Virus record (IMG/VR): IMGVR_UViG_3300012971_000145 | Length of the DNA: 14,230 nucleotides | Reading direction: 5' to 3' (one strand) | DNA from: a virus | In this document: positions 377-6,921 of the stretch, piece by piece | How the letters are laid out: the number at the start of each line of letters is the position of its first letter | How positions within the stretch are numbered: position 1 is the first letter of the stretch | Notes under the pieces: model-generated | What the model saw: only the letters and a program-made list of their open reading frames with translations | Told to the model about the DNA's origin: nothing | The model's database searches: none | Made by a program: the position numbers and the translations under genes

Positions 377-761
377 TCGCTTCGTCACCTGGGTGGACGA
401 GAAGCCCACCGACGAACAGTTGTTGTTCGTCCTTGAGGATTTTCTAGGGGGAGTCGGGGAGATAACCAATGACCCGACGAACGAGGGCCGTCCCTGGTGG
501 ACCATAAAGTTGCCGGGGAAGCCCTCCCACCCCCTGCGTCGGGCCTTCCAGATCGAAGGGCCGATGGTTCACGAAGAGCGCTGGTTCGAGGTCTACGTTG
601 CCGACGACCATATTGATGTGATGACGCGATTGGGTGACGCCTTTACCAACGCCCTGGCCGACAAGTTTGCCGAAGTGGTGTGCCGAGCCTGGAGAGCGAA
701 AAGTGGACTCCCCTCCGATCCCGACCCCGAACCCGATCCCAACGACTCCTGTTCCGTATAA
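366..761 (+). CDS. hypothetical protein, 131 aa, acidic DPDPEPDP tail
   Basis: ATG 366 is preceded by GGCAGGA 6 nt upstream. It overlaps the previous stop (374-376). Stop is TAA 759-761. Confidence 0.6.
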   Translation: MALDRFVTWVDEKPTDEQLLFVLEDFLGGVGEITNDPTNEGRPWWTIKLPGKPSHPLRRAFQIEGPMVHEERWFEVYVADDHIDVMTRLGDAFTNALADKFAEVVCRAWRAKSGLPSDPDPEPDPNDSCSV

Positions 762-789
762 GGGCCAACTGTTTGAGTCAACAGGGGTA

Positions 790-1191
790 TTGCGCTATAA
801 CATCAAGGACGGTTACGGGTATCGCTTGGTGGTGGAGATCGACAAGGCCATCGTGGATTATTACCGTGCCCTCATCCCGCCCTGGAAGGGCAAGATCAAC
901 CGCCAGATGTACGCCCCGCATATTTCTGTGGTGCGCAACGAAGTGCCGGCCAACCTGGATGCCTGGGCCAAGTATGAGGGCGAGGAAATCAAGTTCCTTT
1001 ACAGCAACCACATTTATCACGGCACGGTCTACTGGTGGCTCAACGCTTTCTGTACCCGCCTGGAGGACATTCGCCTGGAACTTGGGCTGCCGGTATCAAG
1101 TCAATTCACACGGCCCCCTGAAGGTTTCGTGAAGTGTTTTCACATCACTATCGGCAACATGAAGGAGCAGGAGCATGGATGCAAGGAATAA
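790..1191 (+). CDS. 2H phosphoesterase superfamily protein (LigT / 2',5'-RNA ligase / cyclic phosphodiesterase-like)
   Basis: Two H-x-[ST]-x motifs, 'APHISVV' and 'CFHITIG', lie about 76 aa apart. That is the diagnostic spacing of the 2H fold. I place the start at TTG 790 behind AGGGGT. The ORF track's 634 start would add a Pro-rich extension that reads through the previous gene in another frame. Stop is TAA 1189-1191. Confidence 0.7.
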   Translation: MRYNIKDGYGYRLVVEIDKAIVDYYRALIPPWKGKINRQMYAPHISVVRNEVPANLDAWAKYEGEEIKFLYSNHIYHGTVYWWLNAFCTRLEDIRLELGLPVSSQFTRPPEGFVKCFHITIGNMKEQEHGCKE

Positions 1192-1435
1192 GATGACGTT
1201 CTGGGAGGAGTGCCGCTGGGCGTTGCCGAAGGTGTGGAAAAACCCCTGGTGGTATATCGCCCTGGGTTTGTTCGTCTTTGGGCCGTTCTTAAATCGCCAC
1301 GGCCTGTATGTATGGGAATGGCCCTGGTGGGCCATTCCTTACATTCCCCTCATGGCCGTTTTTATTTTCCTCATGGCCGTGCTGCTACGTCGCACCGGGC
1401 CGGGCGGGGTGTACGAAGAAAAAGGCCAGGGTTGA
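1175..1435 (+). CDS. small membrane protein, 2 predicted TM helices
   Basis: ATG 1175 sits 7 nt after AAGGAG and overlaps the upstream gene by 17 nt. Hydrophobic segments are 'WWYIALGLFVFGPFL' and 'IPYIPLMAVFIFLMAVLL'. Stop is TGA 1433-1435. Confidence 0.65.
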   Translation: MDARNKMTFWEECRWALPKVWKNPWWYIALGLFVFGPFLNRHGLYVWEWPWWAIPYIPLMAVFIFLMAVLLRRTGPGGVYEEKGQG

Positions 1436-1451
1436 CCTGGCCTTTCCTTTT
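1421..1451. terminator. bidirectional rho-independent terminator between convergent genes
   Basis: The hairpin is AAAAA-GGCCAGG-gttga-CCTGGCC-TTTCCTTTT (stem 1424-1430/1436-1442). An A-run lies upstream and a T-run downstream. The stop codons of both convergent genes fall inside it. Confidence 0.6.
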
Positions 1452-2028
1452 AACGGCGATTGCGGAATCGCTCGTAGAAGCGTTGAAACTCCTTGAACTC
1501 CTGGTAATCACGGAATGTGAAGGGGTACACATAGGGCCGAGAGCCGAAGGCCGGGTAGTTATACCCGTATGGCGCAGGGCCGTCGAAGCCGTAGAAGTAG
1601 CCGAGTTCCGGGGGAGGAGGCGGCACGCCGACCGGCAGGGTGATCCATCGCCACCCCTGACGGGTCATCCGCCAGTAGCCGTTGATGGCCGGCACAGGAA
1701 AGCCTCCGGTGGCCGGTTGGATGTTGCTCTGGGGCGGCGTGGGCAGAAAGGGCATCGGCGGCAGCGGCGGGATGGTGTGAACGTCGTCAGCCGGCGGCAT
1801 TGGCGGGACCGGCGGGGTCATCTGGGCCGGCGTTCTTGATTCGGTGGTTCTGGGCTTGGTCGGGGTGGGGGGAATTTCCTCCACCACACGGCGGATGGTC
1901 CGCCGGATTGTGTTCAGCGTGTCGTTGGCCCGCTGGCGTAGTTCTTCCTGGCAGAACACCGTATCCGGCGGCGTCGGCAGGTCAACAGGCGCAAAAAGGG
2001 CCACGGTCGTCAATAGAGTCGATAGCAT
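1450..2028 (-). CDS. secreted proline-rich / Tyr-Phe-rich protein, 192 aa; the only minus-strand gene in the window
   Basis: The minus-strand ATG (revcomp 2026-2028) lies 4 nt after a perfect AGGAGG (revcomp of 2033-2038). The N-terminus 'MLSTLLTTVALFAPV' is signal-peptide-like. The protein has PPxP tracts and an aromatic C-terminus 'YFYGFDGPAPYGYNYPAFGSRPYVYPF'. Confidence 0.65.
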   Translation of the reverse strand: MLSTLLTTVALFAPVDLPTPPDTVFCQEELRQRANDTLNTIRRTIRRVVEEIPPTPTKPRTTESRTPAQMTPPVPPMPPADDVHTIPPLPPMPFLPTPPQSNIQPATGGFPVPAINGYWRMTRQGWRWITLPVGVPPPPPELGYFYGFDGPAPYGYNYPAFGSRPYVYPFTFRDYQEFKEFQRFYERFRNRR

Positions 2029-2078
2029 ACTACCTCCTGTGAAATAGGCTTATAATGAATTCTAGCGAGGATATATCA
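2029..2078. promoter_or_regulatory. AT-rich divergent intergenic region with TATAAT (2051-2056) for the + strand genes
   Basis: This is the only AT-rich stretch nearby. A TATAAT hexamer is followed 23 nt later by the GCGAGG RBS and ATG 2079. It also carries the minus-strand RBS. Confidence 0.35.
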
Positions 2079-2582
2079 ATGTTCAAGATACTGCTGATAA
2101 ATCAAATCTGGTATCACGAGGATGACGCTCAAATTGAAGTGAAGGAAGTGACCCTGGGCGAACTTTTGGAGAACCCGGATTACGAAATTCAGGCGGAATT
2201 GGAGCGTGCCGGCTGGAAAAATGTCAAGAAGGTGGTGGACCGGGATACCCGGCTCGCCCTGAACAAGAATTTCTTTCTGATCTCCGGCCAGGGCTACCCT
2301 GCCGTCTTGCCCGTCGATCTGGACCGATTGCAGAGTTACAACTTAACATCGTTGGCGAATGGCAGTAAACTGGTGCAAGAAGTTAGCGTCCAGTCGGCAT
2401 TGACCGACGAGCAGTATAAGCAGTATCAGAAGGCCAGGAAGGTCATCGACAACCAGAAGCGCCAGCAGGCCGAGGCCAAGCGCAAGCGGGCGGAAAAGAA
2501 GAAGAGCCGGGAGCTTGCTAAGGCTGCCAAAGTGCTTCAGGACAACGGAATCAAGGTAGAACTTGACCAACAGGGAGGGTAA
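2079..2582 (+). CDS. hypothetical protein with Lys/Arg-rich coiled C-terminus (KRQQAEAKRKRAEKKKSRELAK)
   Basis: I chose ATG 2079, 8 nt after GCGAGG. The track's ATG 2055 sits inside the TATAAT hexamer. Stop is TAA 2580-2582. Confidence 0.55.
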   Translation: MFKILLINQIWYHEDDAQIEVKEVTLGELLENPDYEIQAELERAGWKNVKKVVDRDTRLALNKNFFLISGQGYPAVLPVDLDRLQSYNLTSLANGSKLVQEVSVQSALTDEQYKQYQKARKVIDNQKRQQAEAKRKRAEKKKSRELAKAAKVLQDNGIKVELDQQGG

Positions 2583-2583
2583 G

Positions 2584-2886
2584 ATGGCTGCGGCCAAACA
2601 GGTTATTGAGTCCGAGGAGAAGCCGGTGGAGCGGAACGCCTTGAAGGAGGCCATCGTCACGGTCCTGAAGGCGGGGCTGGGCCTGGAACTGCGCACGCCC
2701 CTGGCCGTTTACCCCACGGACGGCAGCTACATGGTCAGCTTCTTGTTTTTCGACGGGGAGCCGATCCCGACCGGCCTCAGCCTTGAACAGCGCAACCGGG
2801 TGAAGAAGGAACAGGAGATGGATGAGTATTTCGACTCTCCTGAAGAGGCGGCGGAATTATTTTTGAAGCTCAAGGAGCAACGATGA
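2584..2886 (+). CDS. hypothetical protein, 100 aa
   Basis: ATG 2584 is immediately preceded by GGGAGGG. The track's ATG 2563 lies inside the upstream gene. Confidence 0.6.
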   Translation: MAAAKQVIESEEKPVERNALKEAIVTVLKAGLGLELRTPLAVYPTDGSYMVSFLFFDGEPIPTGLSLEQRNRVKKEQEMDEYFDSPEEAAELFLKLKEQR

Positions 2887-3362
2887 AACCCAAGATATGC
2901 AGCCACCGGGCGGCTGCGGAATTCCTGCACGACAACCCGAAGACACACGACGTTATTTTGATCGTCAACAACGGCACGAGGTATGACAACGAGGACCACC
3001 TGAGCGCCATCCGGCGAAACGCCAACCGGGTCTGTGAGTTGATGTTTGACGACATCGAGTTCCACCGTGACAACCACAGGATGGTGGACGAGTCGCAGGT
3101 TCAGGAGGCGATCCATTTCGCCGCCGGCAAGGACAACCTCGTTGTCACCTGCACGGCGGGCATGGGCCGCAGTGCGGCCTTGGCATACGTCGTGGCTTGC
3201 TCTAAAATGGACCCTGCCGAGGCGGTGACGATTTTGGACCCGGATCGCCACACTCCGAATGAGAAAGTGATTTTCCTGGGCAACCGGCTGGTGGACGCGC
3301 CCACTCTTTTGGAGTGTTACGCCCGATTTAAGGACCAGATGTGCCTGCGATACAAATTCTAG
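2883..3362 (+). CDS. Cys-based phosphatase (PTP / dual-specificity phosphatase superfamily, CX5R P-loop)
   Basis: The start shows ATGA coupling. 'VVTCTAGMGRSAALAY' matches the (V/H)Cx2Gx2R(S/T) catalytic loop of cysteine phosphatases. It sits about two-thirds of the way along a 159-aa protein, as in DSP folds. Confidence 0.65.
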   Translation: MKPKICSHRAAAEFLHDNPKTHDVILIVNNGTRYDNEDHLSAIRRNANRVCELMFDDIEFHRDNHRMVDESQVQEAIHFAAGKDNLVVTCTAGMGRSAALAYVVACSKMDPAEAVTILDPDRHTPNEKVIFLGNRLVDAPTLLECYARFKDQMCLRYKF

Positions 3363-3372
3363 GAGATTTAGC

Positions 3373-3600
3373 GTGGCGGACTTCTGCAAAGCCTGCTCAA
3401 CCGAACTCTTCGGAGAGGATCGGGGCGACTTGAAGGGAGTAACCTCTGAAGAGGACTGGCAGCAAGGCCGTGCCGGCATCACCATCTGCGAGGGTTGCGG
3501 CGTTATTTATGTTGACCCCAGCGGCAACTGCGTTTCTTCGGATTGTCTGAAGAAGGGCAAGCCTGGACACGGAGATACCCAATGGCCGACAACCCCGTAA
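3373..3600 (+). CDS. small zinc-ribbon protein (CKAC ... CEGC ... C-x5-C)
   Basis: GTG 3373 lies 7 nt after AGGAG. It has two CxxC pairs. It is 75 aa. Confidence 0.55.
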   Translation: MADFCKACSTELFGEDRGDLKGVTSEEDWQQGRAGITICEGCGVIYVDPSGNCVSSDCLKKGKPGHGDTQWPTTP

Positions 3601-3881
3601 GACGGCTGCCCGACCCAGGCGACGGCCTGGGGCGGGTGGAAACCGGCCCGGTGCAAATTGGCGACGACTGGCCGGGCCTCTTCATTCGGGGCGACTGCGC
3701 CTTTGGCCTCGCCATGAGCATCAAGGCCGTGCTGACCCACTTCGAGGACAACCCGAAACAGGAAATCGGCTTCGCCCTCCACGACCTCCAATCGCTGTAC
3801 AAGGACATTCTCACTCAGGTCATCATCGGCGGCAACGAGATGTATAATAGAATGGAGGACAAATTGCCGCCGGAGGGCTAG
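3582..3881 (+). CDS. hypothetical protein, about 99 aa
   Basis: ATG 3582 is preceded by GGAGA. The track start at 3543 has no RBS. The start here is uncertain. Confidence 0.5.
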   Translation: MADNPVRRLPDPGDGLGRVETGPVQIGDDWPGLFIRGDCAFGLAMSIKAVLTHFEDNPKQEIGFALHDLQSLYKDILTQVIIGGNEMYNRMEDKLPPEG

Positions 3882-4267
3882 TGGAAGCGTTCGTATTTAT
3901 CGGTTTATTATTCGCCCATTGGGTGGGAGATTTCGTTTGCCAAACTCGTTACATGGCTGATAACAAGAGCAAGGACTGGTTGGCCCTGACCAGCCACGTC
4001 TTGACCTACATGACGGTGCTGGGGGTCTTTATCGGTGTCCTGCTTGTCGGCCTGGCCTTAAACGGCCCCGGATACGCCGGCTTGTTTTTCCTGTGGTTGG
4101 GGGTTAATTTCGCGTTGCATTTTGGCACCGATGCCATAACCAGCCGCATCACCAGTTATTATTGGAGCCAGCGACAAACAAGTGCGTTTTTCAGAACCAT
4201 CGGTTTCGACCAGTTTCTTCACGCGACCGCCCTGCTGTTGACAACCAAGTACATCCTGGGAATTTGA
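3881..4267 (+). CDS. integral membrane protein, possibly DUF3307-like (HWVGDFVCQ motif)
   Basis: GTG 3881 overlaps the upstream TAG by 1 nt. It has three or four hydrophobic helices. The family assignment comes from my memory of the motif only. Confidence 0.5.
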   Translation: MEAFVFIGLLFAHWVGDFVCQTRYMADNKSKDWLALTSHVLTYMTVLGVFIGVLLVGLALNGPGYAGLFFLWLGVNFALHFGTDAITSRITSYYWSQRQTSAFFRTIGFDQFLHATALLLTTKYILGI

Positions 4268-4647: not shown

Positions 4648-4959
4648 ATGGTTTGGAGCGTGTTCGATCTCAAGGGTCAGTCGCACCCGGTCCCTGGCAA
4701 GGTGTGCGTGGTGTTTCAGGATGAAGTTTCGGCGGGCGAGGCGACCGTGTTCCTCGATCAGTTCAAGCCCAAAGGCGTCAGTATGTATTTTGCGGTCCAC
4801 ACCGCCAGCGTGGACGTGGGCGAAGGCAACGAGGACGCCTTCATCGCCACCGTCCTCCAGCACCCTGACAAGGTGAAGGCTGCGGAGCGCGAAATGAGCA
4901 TCATCCTGTTCGGTGGAAGCCAATTCGGGGGGAACCTGTTCGGGGAGCAAAAGCCATGA
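4648..4959 (+). CDS. hypothetical protein, 103 aa
   Basis: GGAGGT lies 9 nt upstream of ATG 4648. It has TAACATG coupling to the previous gene. Confidence 0.6.
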   Translation: MVWSVFDLKGQSHPVPGKVCVVFQDEVSAGEATVFLDQFKPKGVSMYFAVHTASVDVGEGNEDAFIATVLQHPDKVKAAEREMSIILFGGSQFGGNLFGEQKP

Positions 4960-5414
4960 GCGACGACATCAAGGTGTACCAGCGGGGGGAAAGCCCCCAG
5001 GAGAAACCCTATTTCGAGGCGTTGCTCGCCGCCCTCCCGGAAGGGTGGGCGGTGACGGAGGGGCCGTATTGTCCGGGCAAGGAGGGTCATCTCACCTACA
5101 AGGCGGTCAGCGCCCAGGGCGGGCAGTATCGGATCGCGCATGTTCGGGACGGCGACTTTGCCGTTACCCTGGAGCCGGCCAAAATCGACCATAATTGGTT
5201 GGCGCAGCAACTCGGAGCCGAGATCGTTGGCAAGGTAGAAGGGCCAATTCACGGCATGGCCGGAGTCGCTAATCTGACCCGGCAATATCAACAACGCATG
5301 AAGGAGAAACGAGATGCTGCCGACCCAGAAGTGGATACTGGCCAAGGTGATCTCCGGGGGCCAGACGGGGGCGGACCAGGCGGGCCTACGGGCCGCACGG
5401 GCGATGGGCATTGA
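4956..5414 (+). CDS. hypothetical protein, 152 aa; the 3' 101 nt overlap the next gene
   Basis: ATGA coupling at 4956. The Gly-rich tail 'GPDGGGPGGPTGRTGDGH' lies wholly inside the next gene's start region. Confidence 0.45.
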   Translation: MSDDIKVYQRGESPQEKPYFEALLAALPEGWAVTEGPYCPGKEGHLTYKAVSAQGGQYRIAHVRDGDFAVTLEPAKIDHNWLAQQLGAEIVGKVEGPIHGMAGVANLTRQYQQRMKEKRDAADPEVDTGQGDLRGPDGGGPGGPTGRTGDGH

Positions 5415-5829
5415 AACCGGCGGCTGGGTGCCTTTCGGCTGTGTCACCGAGGACGGCCCCAATCCAGCGCTCCTCAAGGAGTACGATCTCAAGGAGATGG
5501 ATAGCGACAAATACCCGCCCCGCACGGAGGCCAACGTGCGGGATTCGGACGGCACTATGCGTTTCGCCGCTAACTTCGCCACCGCCGGTGAACGCTGCAC
5601 CCTGAAGGCGATCAAGTGGTTCAATAAACCATATTTCGACGTGGACTGGAACAACCCGCCGTCCATCCAACAGGCGGTGGAGTGGATCGTCGCCAACAAA
5701 GTGAAAACGCTCAACGTCGCCGGCAACCGGGAAAGTACCAACCCAGGCATCGGCAGCTTCGTGGAACAATATTTGGTCCAGGTGTTCGCCCAGGTCATAC
5801 TTAAACCCGTGCGGAGTGCGACGAAATGA
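5314..5829 (+). CDS. SLOG-superfamily protein of the 'molybdenum-cofactor-carrier'/YpsA-like family
   Basis: AAGGAG lies 9 nt before ATG 5314. The N-terminal 'ISGGQTGADQAGL' P-loop-like motif is followed by 'GGWVPFG..EDG.NP...Y.L.E......Y..RT..NV.DSDGT'. This is the characteristic MoCo-carrier/YpsA pattern. Confidence 0.75.
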   Translation: MLPTQKWILAKVISGGQTGADQAGLRAARAMGIETGGWVPFGCVTEDGPNPALLKEYDLKEMDSDKYPPRTEANVRDSDGTMRFAANFATAGERCTLKAIKWFNKPYFDVDWNNPPSIQQAVEWIVANKVKTLNVAGNRESTNPGIGSFVEQYLVQVFAQVILKPVRSATK

Positions 5830-6584
5830 TCGACTTTGAACGAGGCGCGAAAACCACCGGCTCGAAGTTCTACTTCCTCACCGGCGACGAGGCCGTGATG
5901 GAGTGGAACCTCATCAACTACATGATCCGCTTCCACCGCCACAAGGGCTACCAGTTCGTGCTGCCGCCCTTTTTGGTAAATAAGAAAGTGGGCGAGATGG
6001 CCGGCATTCTCCCTCGTTTCGAGGGCGACTACTACCAGACCAAGGATGGCCTCATGCTGATCCCGACCGCCGAGACGCCCCTGGTCGGGATGCACGCCAA
6101 TGAAATCTTCAAGGAGGAAGAGCTTCCCCGCCGCTACGTCGCCTACTCCCCCTGCTTCCGCAAGGAGGCTGGGGCCTACGGTGCCAAGGACAAGGGCTAC
6201 CGCCGGGTCCATCAGTTCAATAAGGTCGAATTGTTTACCATCTGCACGCCGGACTCGTCGGAGTTTTACCACAACCAGATGGTGGACGACGTGTGCGAAC
6301 TGCTCAAGAATCTCAACGTCGAACATCGCAAGGTAGTGCTGGACGAAAAGGACCGTTCGCCCGTTTCCAATCAGACCATCGACATCGAAGTGCTGGTCGG
6401 CAAGGAGTGGTTGGAGGTATCTTCTATTTCCAACACCGGCGACAACCAGAGCCGGGTCGCCCAGGTCCGTTATAAGCCAAAGGACGGCAAGAAGAATGTC
6501 AAGTGTCACTTGCTCAACGGTTCGGGCGTTGCCCTCCCCCGGCTGATGCTCGCCCTGGCTGAGCGCATCAACGAGTGGAAATAA
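5826..6584 (+). CDS. seryl-tRNA-synthetase-like protein, catalytic core only (class II aaRS motifs 1-3), lacking the N-terminal coiled-coil arm
   Basis: ATGA coupling to the SLOG gene. It aligns to bacterial SerRS from the start of the catalytic domain onward. Matches are 'LIPTAETPL', 'YSPCFRKEAGAYGAKDKGYRRVHQFNKVEL', 'DIEVLVGKEWLEVSSISN' and the motif-3 'LNGSGVALPRLMLALAE'. The protein is only 252 aa. Confidence 0.85.
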   Translation: MIDFERGAKTTGSKFYFLTGDEAVMEWNLINYMIRFHRHKGYQFVLPPFLVNKKVGEMAGILPRFEGDYYQTKDGLMLIPTAETPLVGMHANEIFKEEELPRRYVAYSPCFRKEAGAYGAKDKGYRRVHQFNKVELFTICTPDSSEFYHNQMVDDVCELLKNLNVEHRKVVLDEKDRSPVSNQTIDIEVLVGKEWLEVSSISNTGDNQSRVAQVRYKPKDGKKNVKCHLLNGSGVALPRLMLALAERINEWK

Positions 6585-6585
6585 C

Positions 6586-6921
6586 ATGGCTGTTCACAAA
6601 GGCTGGGACTTCTTCAGCGCCGACCCCGGCAAAGTTGAAAAATGCGAATGCCGGGTGTGCGGCGAAACCTGCGACGTGAAACGTAATGTCATGGGTGCGA
6701 CCGGCTACGCCGAGTCCCTGGCCGGGATGAAGCACCTGCATGACAACTTCGTGTGCCCCCACGCCCAGGAAGACTGGCACAAGCAAATGCGTTCCTTGCG
6801 CATGGAACAGGAAAATACCAAAAGCGCCGCCCTCAAGGAGCTTTTGGAAGCAGAAATTACGCAAATCTACGTCAACAAGAAAACCACCGAGGGCTGGAAG
6901 CCCGACTGGAGAGATTTATGA
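6586..6921 (+). CDS. Cys/His-rich small protein, putative Zn-finger
   Basis: TAACATG coupling. 'CECRVCGETC' is followed by 'H..H...CPH'. It is 111 aa. Confidence 0.55.
   Translation: MAVHKGWDFFSADPGKVEKCECRVCGETCDVKRNVMGATGYAESLAGMKHLHDNFVCPHAQEDWHKQMRSLRMEQENTKSAALKELLEAEITQIYVNKKTTEGWKPDWRDL

Follow-up and report, generated by a model that had tools for sequence, protein, structure and literature searches.

A reversed single-gene cassette, conserved in one clade of huge-phage-like genomes, encodes a fast-evolving protein with a hydrophobic N-terminus

The virus record IMGVR_UViG_3300012971_000145 from IMG/VR, of which a stretch of 14,230 nucleotides was analysed (the window), carries a gene for a 192-aa protein at positions 1450-2028 of the minus strand, reversed between two forward operons. 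The reading that we prefer, tentatively and with a little less than even confidence, is that this gene is an autonomous cassette fixed in one clade of huge phages, and that its product is fast-evolving, largely disordered and directed to the membrane, and would act at the host envelope. The cassette would form a complete single-gene transcription unit in a huge (jumbo) phage-like genome. The evidence comes from selection on the coding sequence, from the constant position of the gene in six metagenomic lineages, from predicted transcription and translation signals and from the conserved modules of the protein.

A reversed gene under purifying selection

The coding sequence opens with ATG, ends with TAA (stop codon at 1450-1452) and is preceded by the Shine-Dalgarno sequence AGGAGGT (2038 to 2032, minus strand), 3 nt 5' of the ATG, which ranks in the top three matches to the anti-Shine-Dalgarno sequence among 26 gene starts of the window. 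Comparison with the homologue on the related contig L004, over 148 aligned codons and at 72% amino-acid identity, gave a ratio of nonsynonymous to synonymous substitution rates (dN/dS) of 0.15, with 29, 25 and 73 differences at the first, second and third codon positions, an excess at the third. The same comparison with contig L001 gave a dN/dS of 0.40, again with mostly third-position differences. The frame at 1450-2028 is a real gene under purifying selection. Its GC content at third codon positions (GC3), 0.76, falls within the range of the neighbouring genes (0.63-0.84) and is thus native, and its raised total GC (0.63) is due to the second codon position (GC2), i.e. to proline, threonine and arginine codons. 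The protein is composed of 19.3% proline, 10.4% threonine and 9.4% arginine. It contains seven PP.P motifs, compared with 1.27 +/- 1.07 in shuffled sequences, and six Y.[YF] motifs, all within residues 144-168, compared with 1.16 +/- 0.99. An earlier interpretation made from the DNA alone (the sequence-only reading) had pointed to a strong AGGAGG, a PPxP-rich region and a YxY/F aromatic tail, and all three are borne out by these counts.

One slot in six lineages

Homologues were sought, as the sequence-only reading had proposed, and a small family was found that is conserved and lies outside any structural module. A word-indexed search of 5.8 billion proteins returned three matches, and an exhaustive HMMER profile search of 1.84 billion representatives returned four. 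Scanning metagenome contigs from JGI with the core motif of the protein yielded four loci, of which two (L005 and L006) were new, one (L007) belonged to the already known P0003 lineage and one (L008, a 39% match) was spurious; the last was rejected, as its VPAVNGYW runs into a stop codon and its contig resembles a bacterial chromosome. Six metagenomic lineages result, with the window included: the window (192 aa), L005 (187 aa), P0003 (223 aa; contigs L001, L002, L003 and L007), L006 (5' end missing at the contig edge), P0005 (101 aa; contig L012) and P0006 (85 aa; contig L011). The five with a full-length protein are the window, L005, P0003, P0005 and P0006, and the homologous loci range from 42 to 58% GC in the five lineages measured.

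Elsewhere the family was not seen. IMG/VR held no other member, and scans of it with three alignments (of the target family or of the adjacent 167-aa protein) and with one of the neighbouring 2H phosphoesterase recovered no relatives. Searching the INPHARED phages with the target by tblastn and deposited phages with the whole window by megablast gave no match, and no copy of the target was present in 185,579 species-representative genomes. No match emerged even at E<=1-10 when as many as six members of the family were compared with Pfam, NCBIfam, PADLOC and PDB sequences; in particular, PADLOC and NCBIfam gave none at E<=1 among anti-phage defence and annotated bacterial families, and PHROGs gave the target family only two meaningless matches (E 0.45 and 0.8).

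Wherever genomic context exists the slot is constant, with a homologue of the 167-aa protein on the divergent side, the reversed target in the middle and the operon of the 2H phosphoesterase on the convergent side. By tblastn, the 167-aa neighbour was located in L005, L007 and L011 and the 2H phosphoesterase in L006, L007, L011 and L012; the contigs L006 and L012 end on the divergent side, so that only the phosphoesterase side is visible there. The target is the sole opposite-strand gene among about 40 genes of the P0003 contigs, and likewise on a contig 99% identical to the window and on L011 and L012. In L007 the target is 38% identical overall and 52% in its core, compared with 68% for the 167-aa protein, 85% for the 2H phosphoesterase, 89% for a seryl-tRNA synthetase (SerRS) core and 93% for an MVP-like protein, the well-aligned neighbours together spanning 62-93%. 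In L005 the values are 67% for the target and 86-91% for the neighbours. Judged by these alignments, the target protein evolves faster than the genes around it.

A predicted self-contained transcription unit

The gene is separated from its divergent neighbour by an AT-rich gap of 50 bp (2029-2078), with 36% GC compared with 57.7% for the whole window. A consensus scan located a sigma-70-type promoter-like site for the minus strand at 2059-2086, with a -35 hexamer TTGAAC (2086-2081), a spacer of 16 nt and a -10 hexamer TAGAAT (2064-2059), matching at 9 of 12 positions; the -10 hexamer is wholly intergenic. Each of the five lineages with sequence upstream of the gene has the pattern TTGAAC-N16/18-TA[GACT]AAT and, between it and the ATG, GGAG(G); in L001, L005, L011 and L012 the equivalent place is occupied by GGAGG or GGAG. 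On the other side, a predicted two-way intrinsic terminator (1416-1449, both strands) consists of the stem GGCCAGG (1424-1430)/CCTGGCC (1436-1442) and the loop GTTGA, with an A-tract to the left of the 1424-1442 hairpin and a T-tract to the right. Its folding energy is -19.6 kcal/mol (z about -4.5) for one strand and -20.4 kcal/mol (z about -4.4) for the other, values matched by none of 200 shuffled sequences, and the site on the minus strand was also picked out by scanning. The convergent 86-aa gene ends with its stop codon inside the loop, so that this one element can end both transcripts. An equivalent hairpin follows the gene in L001, L004 and L012, with differing stem sequences.

The anatomy that the sequence-only reading had described, with a bidirectional terminator on one side and an AT-rich divergent promoter region on the other marking an independently expressed gene, therefore reappears at the level of sequence as a promoter-like site of its own, a strong Shine-Dalgarno sequence and a terminator shared with the 86-aa gene. 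Host RNA polymerase would presumably read TTGAAC-N16-TAGAAT and start the transcript near 2052, the near-perfect Shine-Dalgarno sequence would drive translation, and the hairpin at 1424-1442 would stop both the target transcript and the converging upstream operon.

A plus-strand TATAAT (2051-2056), noticed by reading the letters and showing only partial conservation among relatives, is a possible -10 element for the downstream plus-strand genes. It adjoins the minus-strand TAGAAT (2064-2059), and the putative promoters of the two directions would thus overlap each other, with possible competition for RNA polymerase.

Modules of the protein

Five modules can be distinguished in the window protein, of which the N-terminal run, the core and the tail are conserved in all forms. 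An N-terminal run (residues 1-13, MLSTLLTTVALFA; 1990-2028, minus strand, as are all the following) is uncharged and hydrophobic, ends before a proline and resembles the h-region of a signal peptide. It is followed by a charged helix (residues 23-51; 1876-1962), found only in the long forms and modelled by AlphaFold2 with a predicted local distance difference test score (pLDDT) of about 47-63 per 10-residue block, and by a Pro/Thr-rich linker (residues 52-110; 1699-1875) of 59 residues, 34% of them proline, with PPxP motifs and modelled as disordered. The conserved core (residues 111-140, PVPAINGYWRMTRQGWRWITLPVGVPPPPP; 1609-1698) is a beta-hairpin and the signature of the family. The protein closes with an aromatic/Gly/Arg-rich tail (residues 141-192; 1453-1608), of which 35% is Y/F/W and 15% R/K and which ends in RNRR.

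Conservation is concentrated in the core. Of the 14 invariant columns in the core alignment (A6, five sequences), 12 fall between residues 111 and 140, and the core consensus VPA(I/V/L)NGYWxxTxxG(W/M)(R/Q)(W/F)(V/I)TL is followed by proline except in L006; the Trp/Arg beta-hairpin motif can be written VPAINGYWRxTxxGWRW(V/I)TLPP. The tail retains its composition and not its sequence, being rich in YG/RGG in P0005, in H/R in P0006 and in YGP in L006, and the last 20 residues carry a net charge of +2 to +7 in all homologues. The linker is 17 residues longer in P0003 and nearly missing from the 101-aa form of P0005 and the 85-aa form of P0006, and is dispensable for that reason; helix 23-51 is missing from the same two forms. 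Linker and helix are lineage-specific additions. The AlphaFold2 models are mostly coil and of low confidence. For the window protein (mean pLDDT 42) the model has helix 23-51, a weak helix at the C-terminus and, at 117-122/125-130, a hairpin. For P0005 the mean pLDDT was 55 and a hairpin at 41-46/49-54 (pLDDT about 71-72) was the sole structured element. Apart from the hairpin the two models have no element in common, and the target protein is predicted to be mostly disordered. An amphipathic nature of the C-terminal helix was considered and rejected, with a hydrophobic moment of 0.66 compared with 0.57 +/- 0.29 in shuffled sequences.

The helix region of the gene contains a 9-bp tandem repeat, GAAC(G/A)CTGC, that encodes (A/T)AN units (L004 1-45 compared with L005 600-650). 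Its copy number differs between these near-identical contigs, unless this is an artefact of the assembly edge. The region appears prone to insertions and deletions.

Is the N-terminus a membrane-targeting segment?

All five full-length homologues begin with an uncharged run of 12-13 residues from Met1 (MLSTLLTTVALFA, MLSIVAGLALSVM, MLSALLLSLVLI, MFATLMTIALIT). The run keeps its hydrophobicity and not its sequence, proline follows directly (Glu-Pro-Pro in P0005), and the next 15 residues have a net charge of -1 to -3 in every one of these forms. A length like that of an h-region, conserved hydrophobicity and an acidic flank fit a segment that inserts into the membrane. In the preferred reading the protein would be taken to the cytoplasmic membrane by its N-terminus, which would serve as a Sec signal of atypical kind, probably left uncleaved, or else as a short tether; an envelope or extracellular location is plausible. 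Two more specific versions were rejected. A lipoprotein would need a cysteine directly after the h-region, and there is no lipobox; the only cysteine, residue 26 (TVFC), is far from the h-region and missing in P0003, P0005 and P0006. A membrane helix of the signal-anchor, i-spanin or holin kind would need a hydrophobic segment that spans the bilayer, and the protein has none.

Several observations weigh against the preferred reading. There is no basic n-region in any of the five homologues, where the run begins at residue 2 with no K/R before it. Signal peptidase I is blocked by proline at +1, which is what follows the single small-residue site that the window protein offers (LFA|P); no AxA-type site is conserved, the equivalent places being SVM|P in P0003, LIE|P in P0005 and LIT|P in P0006, as assessed by manual reading. 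For the most favourable stretch of 19 residues the estimated insertion energy is +7.3 to +8.8 kcal/mol in each full-length form, on the scale of Hessa et al. 2005, and at about +7 to +9 kcal/mol the run is no normal membrane helix, being both too short and insufficiently apolar. Positive charges occur only C-terminal to the hydrophobic run and, under the positive-inside rule, the protein could therefore equally stay in the cytoplasm. Profile and structure-sequence searches returned no homologue of known function. At the level of the cassette, the promoter and terminator are predictions, and the -35 hexamer overlaps the start codon of the divergent gene; read on the opposite strand, TTGAAC falls in the Met-Phe-Lys codons that open the 167-aa gene, and coding constraint partly explains its conservation. 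The window holds no capsid or terminase gene, its phage identity following from gene content and relatives. In sum, a signal peptide, as proposed by the sequence-only reading, would be an atypical one, with a 12-13-residue h-region-like run that ends before proline and with neither a basic n-region nor a conserved cleavage site.

The main alternative, which we consider possible though clearly less probable than membrane targeting, is that the protein is cytoplasmic and disordered, that its tail and Trp/Arg hairpin bind RNA, ribosomes or another phage protein, and that the N-terminal run is a protein-binding or peripheral membrane motif. The lack of a canonical signal peptide with its basic n-region favours it, as do the mostly disordered models, the net positive C-terminus and the tails themselves, with FRGGRFGRRR and YGYGY in P0005 and H/R-rich sequence in P0006. 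The company kept by the gene points the same way, with the SerRS core, tRNAs and the MVP-like protein in the window and AspRS, Glu/GlnRS, ClpS and RRF in relatives, but association by neighbourhood is weak evidence among unrelated small genes. No RNA-binding domain was detected in the target, and the retained N-terminal hydrophobicity with its acidic flank is the pattern of a membrane-inserting segment and not of a specific binding motif. Proteins of the RGG and Tyr-Gly low-complexity RNA-binding class are similar to the target in the composition of their tails (YGYGY and FRGGRFGRRR in P0005; Y/F/R-rich in the window), but the resemblance is compositional only, and a hydrophobic N-terminus is foreign to that class.

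A fixed gene and not a recent moron

The sequence-only reading had taken the gene for a moron, i.e. an accessory gene of independent expression. Morons are commonly cited as differing in nucleotide composition from the flanking genome, and the GC3 of the target is that of its neighbours. A moron is also recognised as an apparent insertion when related phages are compared (PMC2629481). No insertion is apparent here because no relative lacking the gene was found; it occupies the same slot in the same orientation in L005, L001/2/3/7, L006, L011, L012 and the 99%-identical contig. The genomes LR756500, LR756501 and LR756511 have no target homologue and were rejected as gene-less comparators, as they share single genes (MVP, 2H phosphoesterase) with the window and no synteny. 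The same slot and orientation in all relatives, together with native composition, argue for an old, vertically inherited gene fixed in its clade. The sequence-only reading had also named a place in a conserved structural module as grounds for abandoning the idea. No structural genes lie nearby, so that the gene does not belong to such a module; it is nevertheless conserved and not accessory, which is what that objection was about in spirit.

A classic moron, recently acquired, expressed alone and perhaps from a prophage, that alters the host surface (lysogenic conversion, adhesion or exclusion) is thus unlikely. Its own promoter-like site, strong Shine-Dalgarno sequence and terminator, its reversed position between two operons and its hydrophobic N-terminus would all suit such a gene. 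Set against these are the identical placement in all six related lineages, the native GC3, the lack of relatives outside the clade that could have served as a source and the available flanks, in which neither integrase nor repressor was seen. The lack of any copy in the 185,579 species-representative genomes leaves no hint of a life as a prophage or of lysogenic conversion. Known phage morons (lambda bor and lom, the HK97 morons and the P22-like 'ant moron') resemble the target as self-contained units between operons, and differ from it in that the target shows no insertion among relatives, no foreign composition and no sign of a temperate life style or prophage expression. The cassette appears to work like a moron as an autonomous unit. 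The observations of the sequence-only reading were largely right, autonomy included, and accessory status is the part that has to be withdrawn. Moron-like anatomy alone is no proof of accessory status, and comparison with relatives is needed.

Likeness to envelope proteins of known function

The long forms, with a hydrophobic run, the linker of 59 residues and 34% proline and a basic aromatic tail, invite a further interpretation that we regard as very improbable, that of a lysis or envelope-bridging factor spanning the periplasm with its N-terminus at the inner membrane, a proline rod across the periplasm and its tail on the outer membrane or wall. Rz1-type o-spanins and TonB are proline-rich. 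Spanins (Rz1-type o-spanin; T1 gp11-type unimolecular) are, like the target, small, phage-encoded and proline-rich, and the target may share their place in the envelope, but it has no C-terminal membrane helix and is not located beside lysis genes, with no holin or endolysin nearby; the spanin assignment was rejected for want of a lipobox cysteine. TonB shares with the long forms the order of N-terminal anchor, PPxP-rich rod-like spacer and C-terminal contact, but the target lacks a real membrane helix and its short homologues lack the spacer. TonB was rejected for want of a TonB_C domain, as neither this nor any other Pfam family was matched by the six members at E<=10 and the PDB profile search gave nothing at E<=10. 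Spanning the periplasm cannot be the conserved function in any case, because the 85-aa and 101-aa homologues are almost without linker.

T4 Sp, Imm and RI are small early phage envelope proteins acting in exclusion or lysis control. The target is like them in being small, in its hydrophobic N-terminus, in a probably host-type promoter and in fast divergence, but has no sequence or profile similarity to them, and its N-terminus has neither a basic n-region nor the length of a signal-anchor-release or membrane-spanning domain.

Neighbouring genes and genome setting

The gene is the only credible minus-strand gene of the window. The other long minus-strand open reading frames (ORFs), at 2727-3485, 4758-6587 (609 aa) and 7489-10710 (1073 aa), lie opposite plus-strand genes supported by protein families, namely the DSPc-like phosphatase, cpYpsA, the class II aminoacyl-tRNA synthetase core and the MVP-like gene. 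Antisense shadow ORFs are expected because GC3 is near 0.8, and the frames at 4758-6587 and 7489-10710 are shadow ORFs and not genes. In gene calls made on two contigs, the 99%-identical one and a related one, all other genes fall on the strand opposite to the target, so that the ORF list, the Pfam matches of the facing genes and independent gene calls agree with the sequence-only reading on this point. That the target is itself a chance frame in GC-rich DNA can be dismissed, for although spurious antisense ORFs of 609 and 1073 aa do occur in the window and the region has a GC content of 0.66, a dN/dS of 0.15 with a third-position excess in this very frame rejects chance, the start, Shine-Dalgarno sequence, promoter and terminator are kept in relatives of 42-58% GC, and a competing plus-strand gene is called in no relative.

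On the convergent side, the 86-aa gene (1175-1435, plus strand) encodes a hydrophobic, membrane-like protein. Its slot is variable and holds unrelated small genes in L006, L011 and L012. Before it lies the gene of the 2H phosphoesterase (phrog_12204; 703-1191, plus strand), with homologues in Bacillus phage G, Atu_ph07 and RaK2-like jumbo phages; its matches comprise 14 records, 13 of which are phage genomes of 346-595 kb and one a Klebsiella phage record of 86 kb. The protein of 167 aa encoded on the divergent side (2079-2582, plus strand) has no assigned function and a C-terminal stretch rich in Lys and Arg. Its gene most likely begins at 2079, where it is called on the 99%-identical contig and where GAGGA at 2068-2072 agrees. 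This protein has no match in Pfam or PHROGs and none among deposited phages by tblastn. It is 91% identical in L005, 68% in L007 and 38% in L011, and adjoins the target wherever upstream DNA exists. The two genes may be a functional or regulatory pair.

Further along the plus strand are genes for a weak dual-specificity-phosphatase-like protein with the motif CTAGMGRS (2883-3362), a DUF3307 protein (3881-4267), a circularly permuted YpsA SLOG domain (5404-5829), a class II aminoacyl-tRNA synthetase core of seryl type (5826-6584; phrog_16140, 1e-67), the MVP-like protein (7507-10161) and a polysaccharide pyruvyl transferase (11419-12510; family as called on a relative), followed by tRNA-Ala(TGC) at 12992-13063, tRNA-Val(TAC) at 13243-13313 and tRNA-Ile(TAT) at 14003-14074. 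At 252 aa the SerRS-like protein is too short to include the N-terminal tRNA-binding arm. Its single match in the species genomes (44%) is on a contig (L013) of a Nitrospirota metagenome-assembled genome, which is perhaps itself viral, and is uninformative on the host. The UAU anticodon for isoleucine is unusual in bacteria, where AUA is normally read by a modified CAU anticodon. The MVP-like protein of 884 aa matches Pfam MVP_shoulder (1.4e-25) and Vault_3 and is 40% identical, over 92-96% of its length, to proteins of LR756500 (462 kb) and LR756501 (735 kb). Both of these are uncultured huge phages (PMC7162821), and MVPs of viruses are the subject of an earlier report (bioRxiv 10.1101/2023.11.10.566534).

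Three tRNAs, PHROG hits, a long same-strand run of small genes and the huge-phage relatives of its MVP-like and 2H phosphoesterase genes make the window look like a section of a huge-phage genome. Contigs of the relatives carry several aminoacyl-tRNA synthetases, ClpS and RRF. Most plus-strand genes of the window have a Shine-Dalgarno sequence of GGAG type, which suggests a host that uses such sequences, unlike the Bacteroidota predicted for the largest MVP-sharing Mahaphage genomes.

Discussion

In the preferred reading, the beta-hairpin and the cationic-aromatic tail of a membrane-directed protein would bind a component of the envelope, such as an anionic lipid, lipopolysaccharide, a wall polymer or a host envelope protein. 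The role would be one in host takeover, exclusion of competing phages or lysis control, timed independently of the flanking operons. That the cassette is kept over loci of 42-58% GC while its protein changes fast argues for a separately timed function under pressure from host or competitor.

What has been found is a clade-restricted new protein family of unassigned function in a well-known kind of genomic arrangement. Phage families of no known function are common, and at face value this family is one more. What is conserved in it, however, comes down to a tag of hydrophobic residues, a single beta-hairpin and a sticky tail, which is small enough to be tested directly by synthesis. There is a small chance, well below that of the preferred reading, that these proteins represent a novel class of small effectors made by a single clade of huge phages from soil, separately timed and acting directly on the host envelope, or alternatively a disordered scaffold or cargo linked to the vault-like shell encoded 5.5 kb downstream. 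If the effector reading were true, examples of its action would be a single-component disruptor of the outer membrane or wall that replaces spanins, or a superinfection-exclusion factor.

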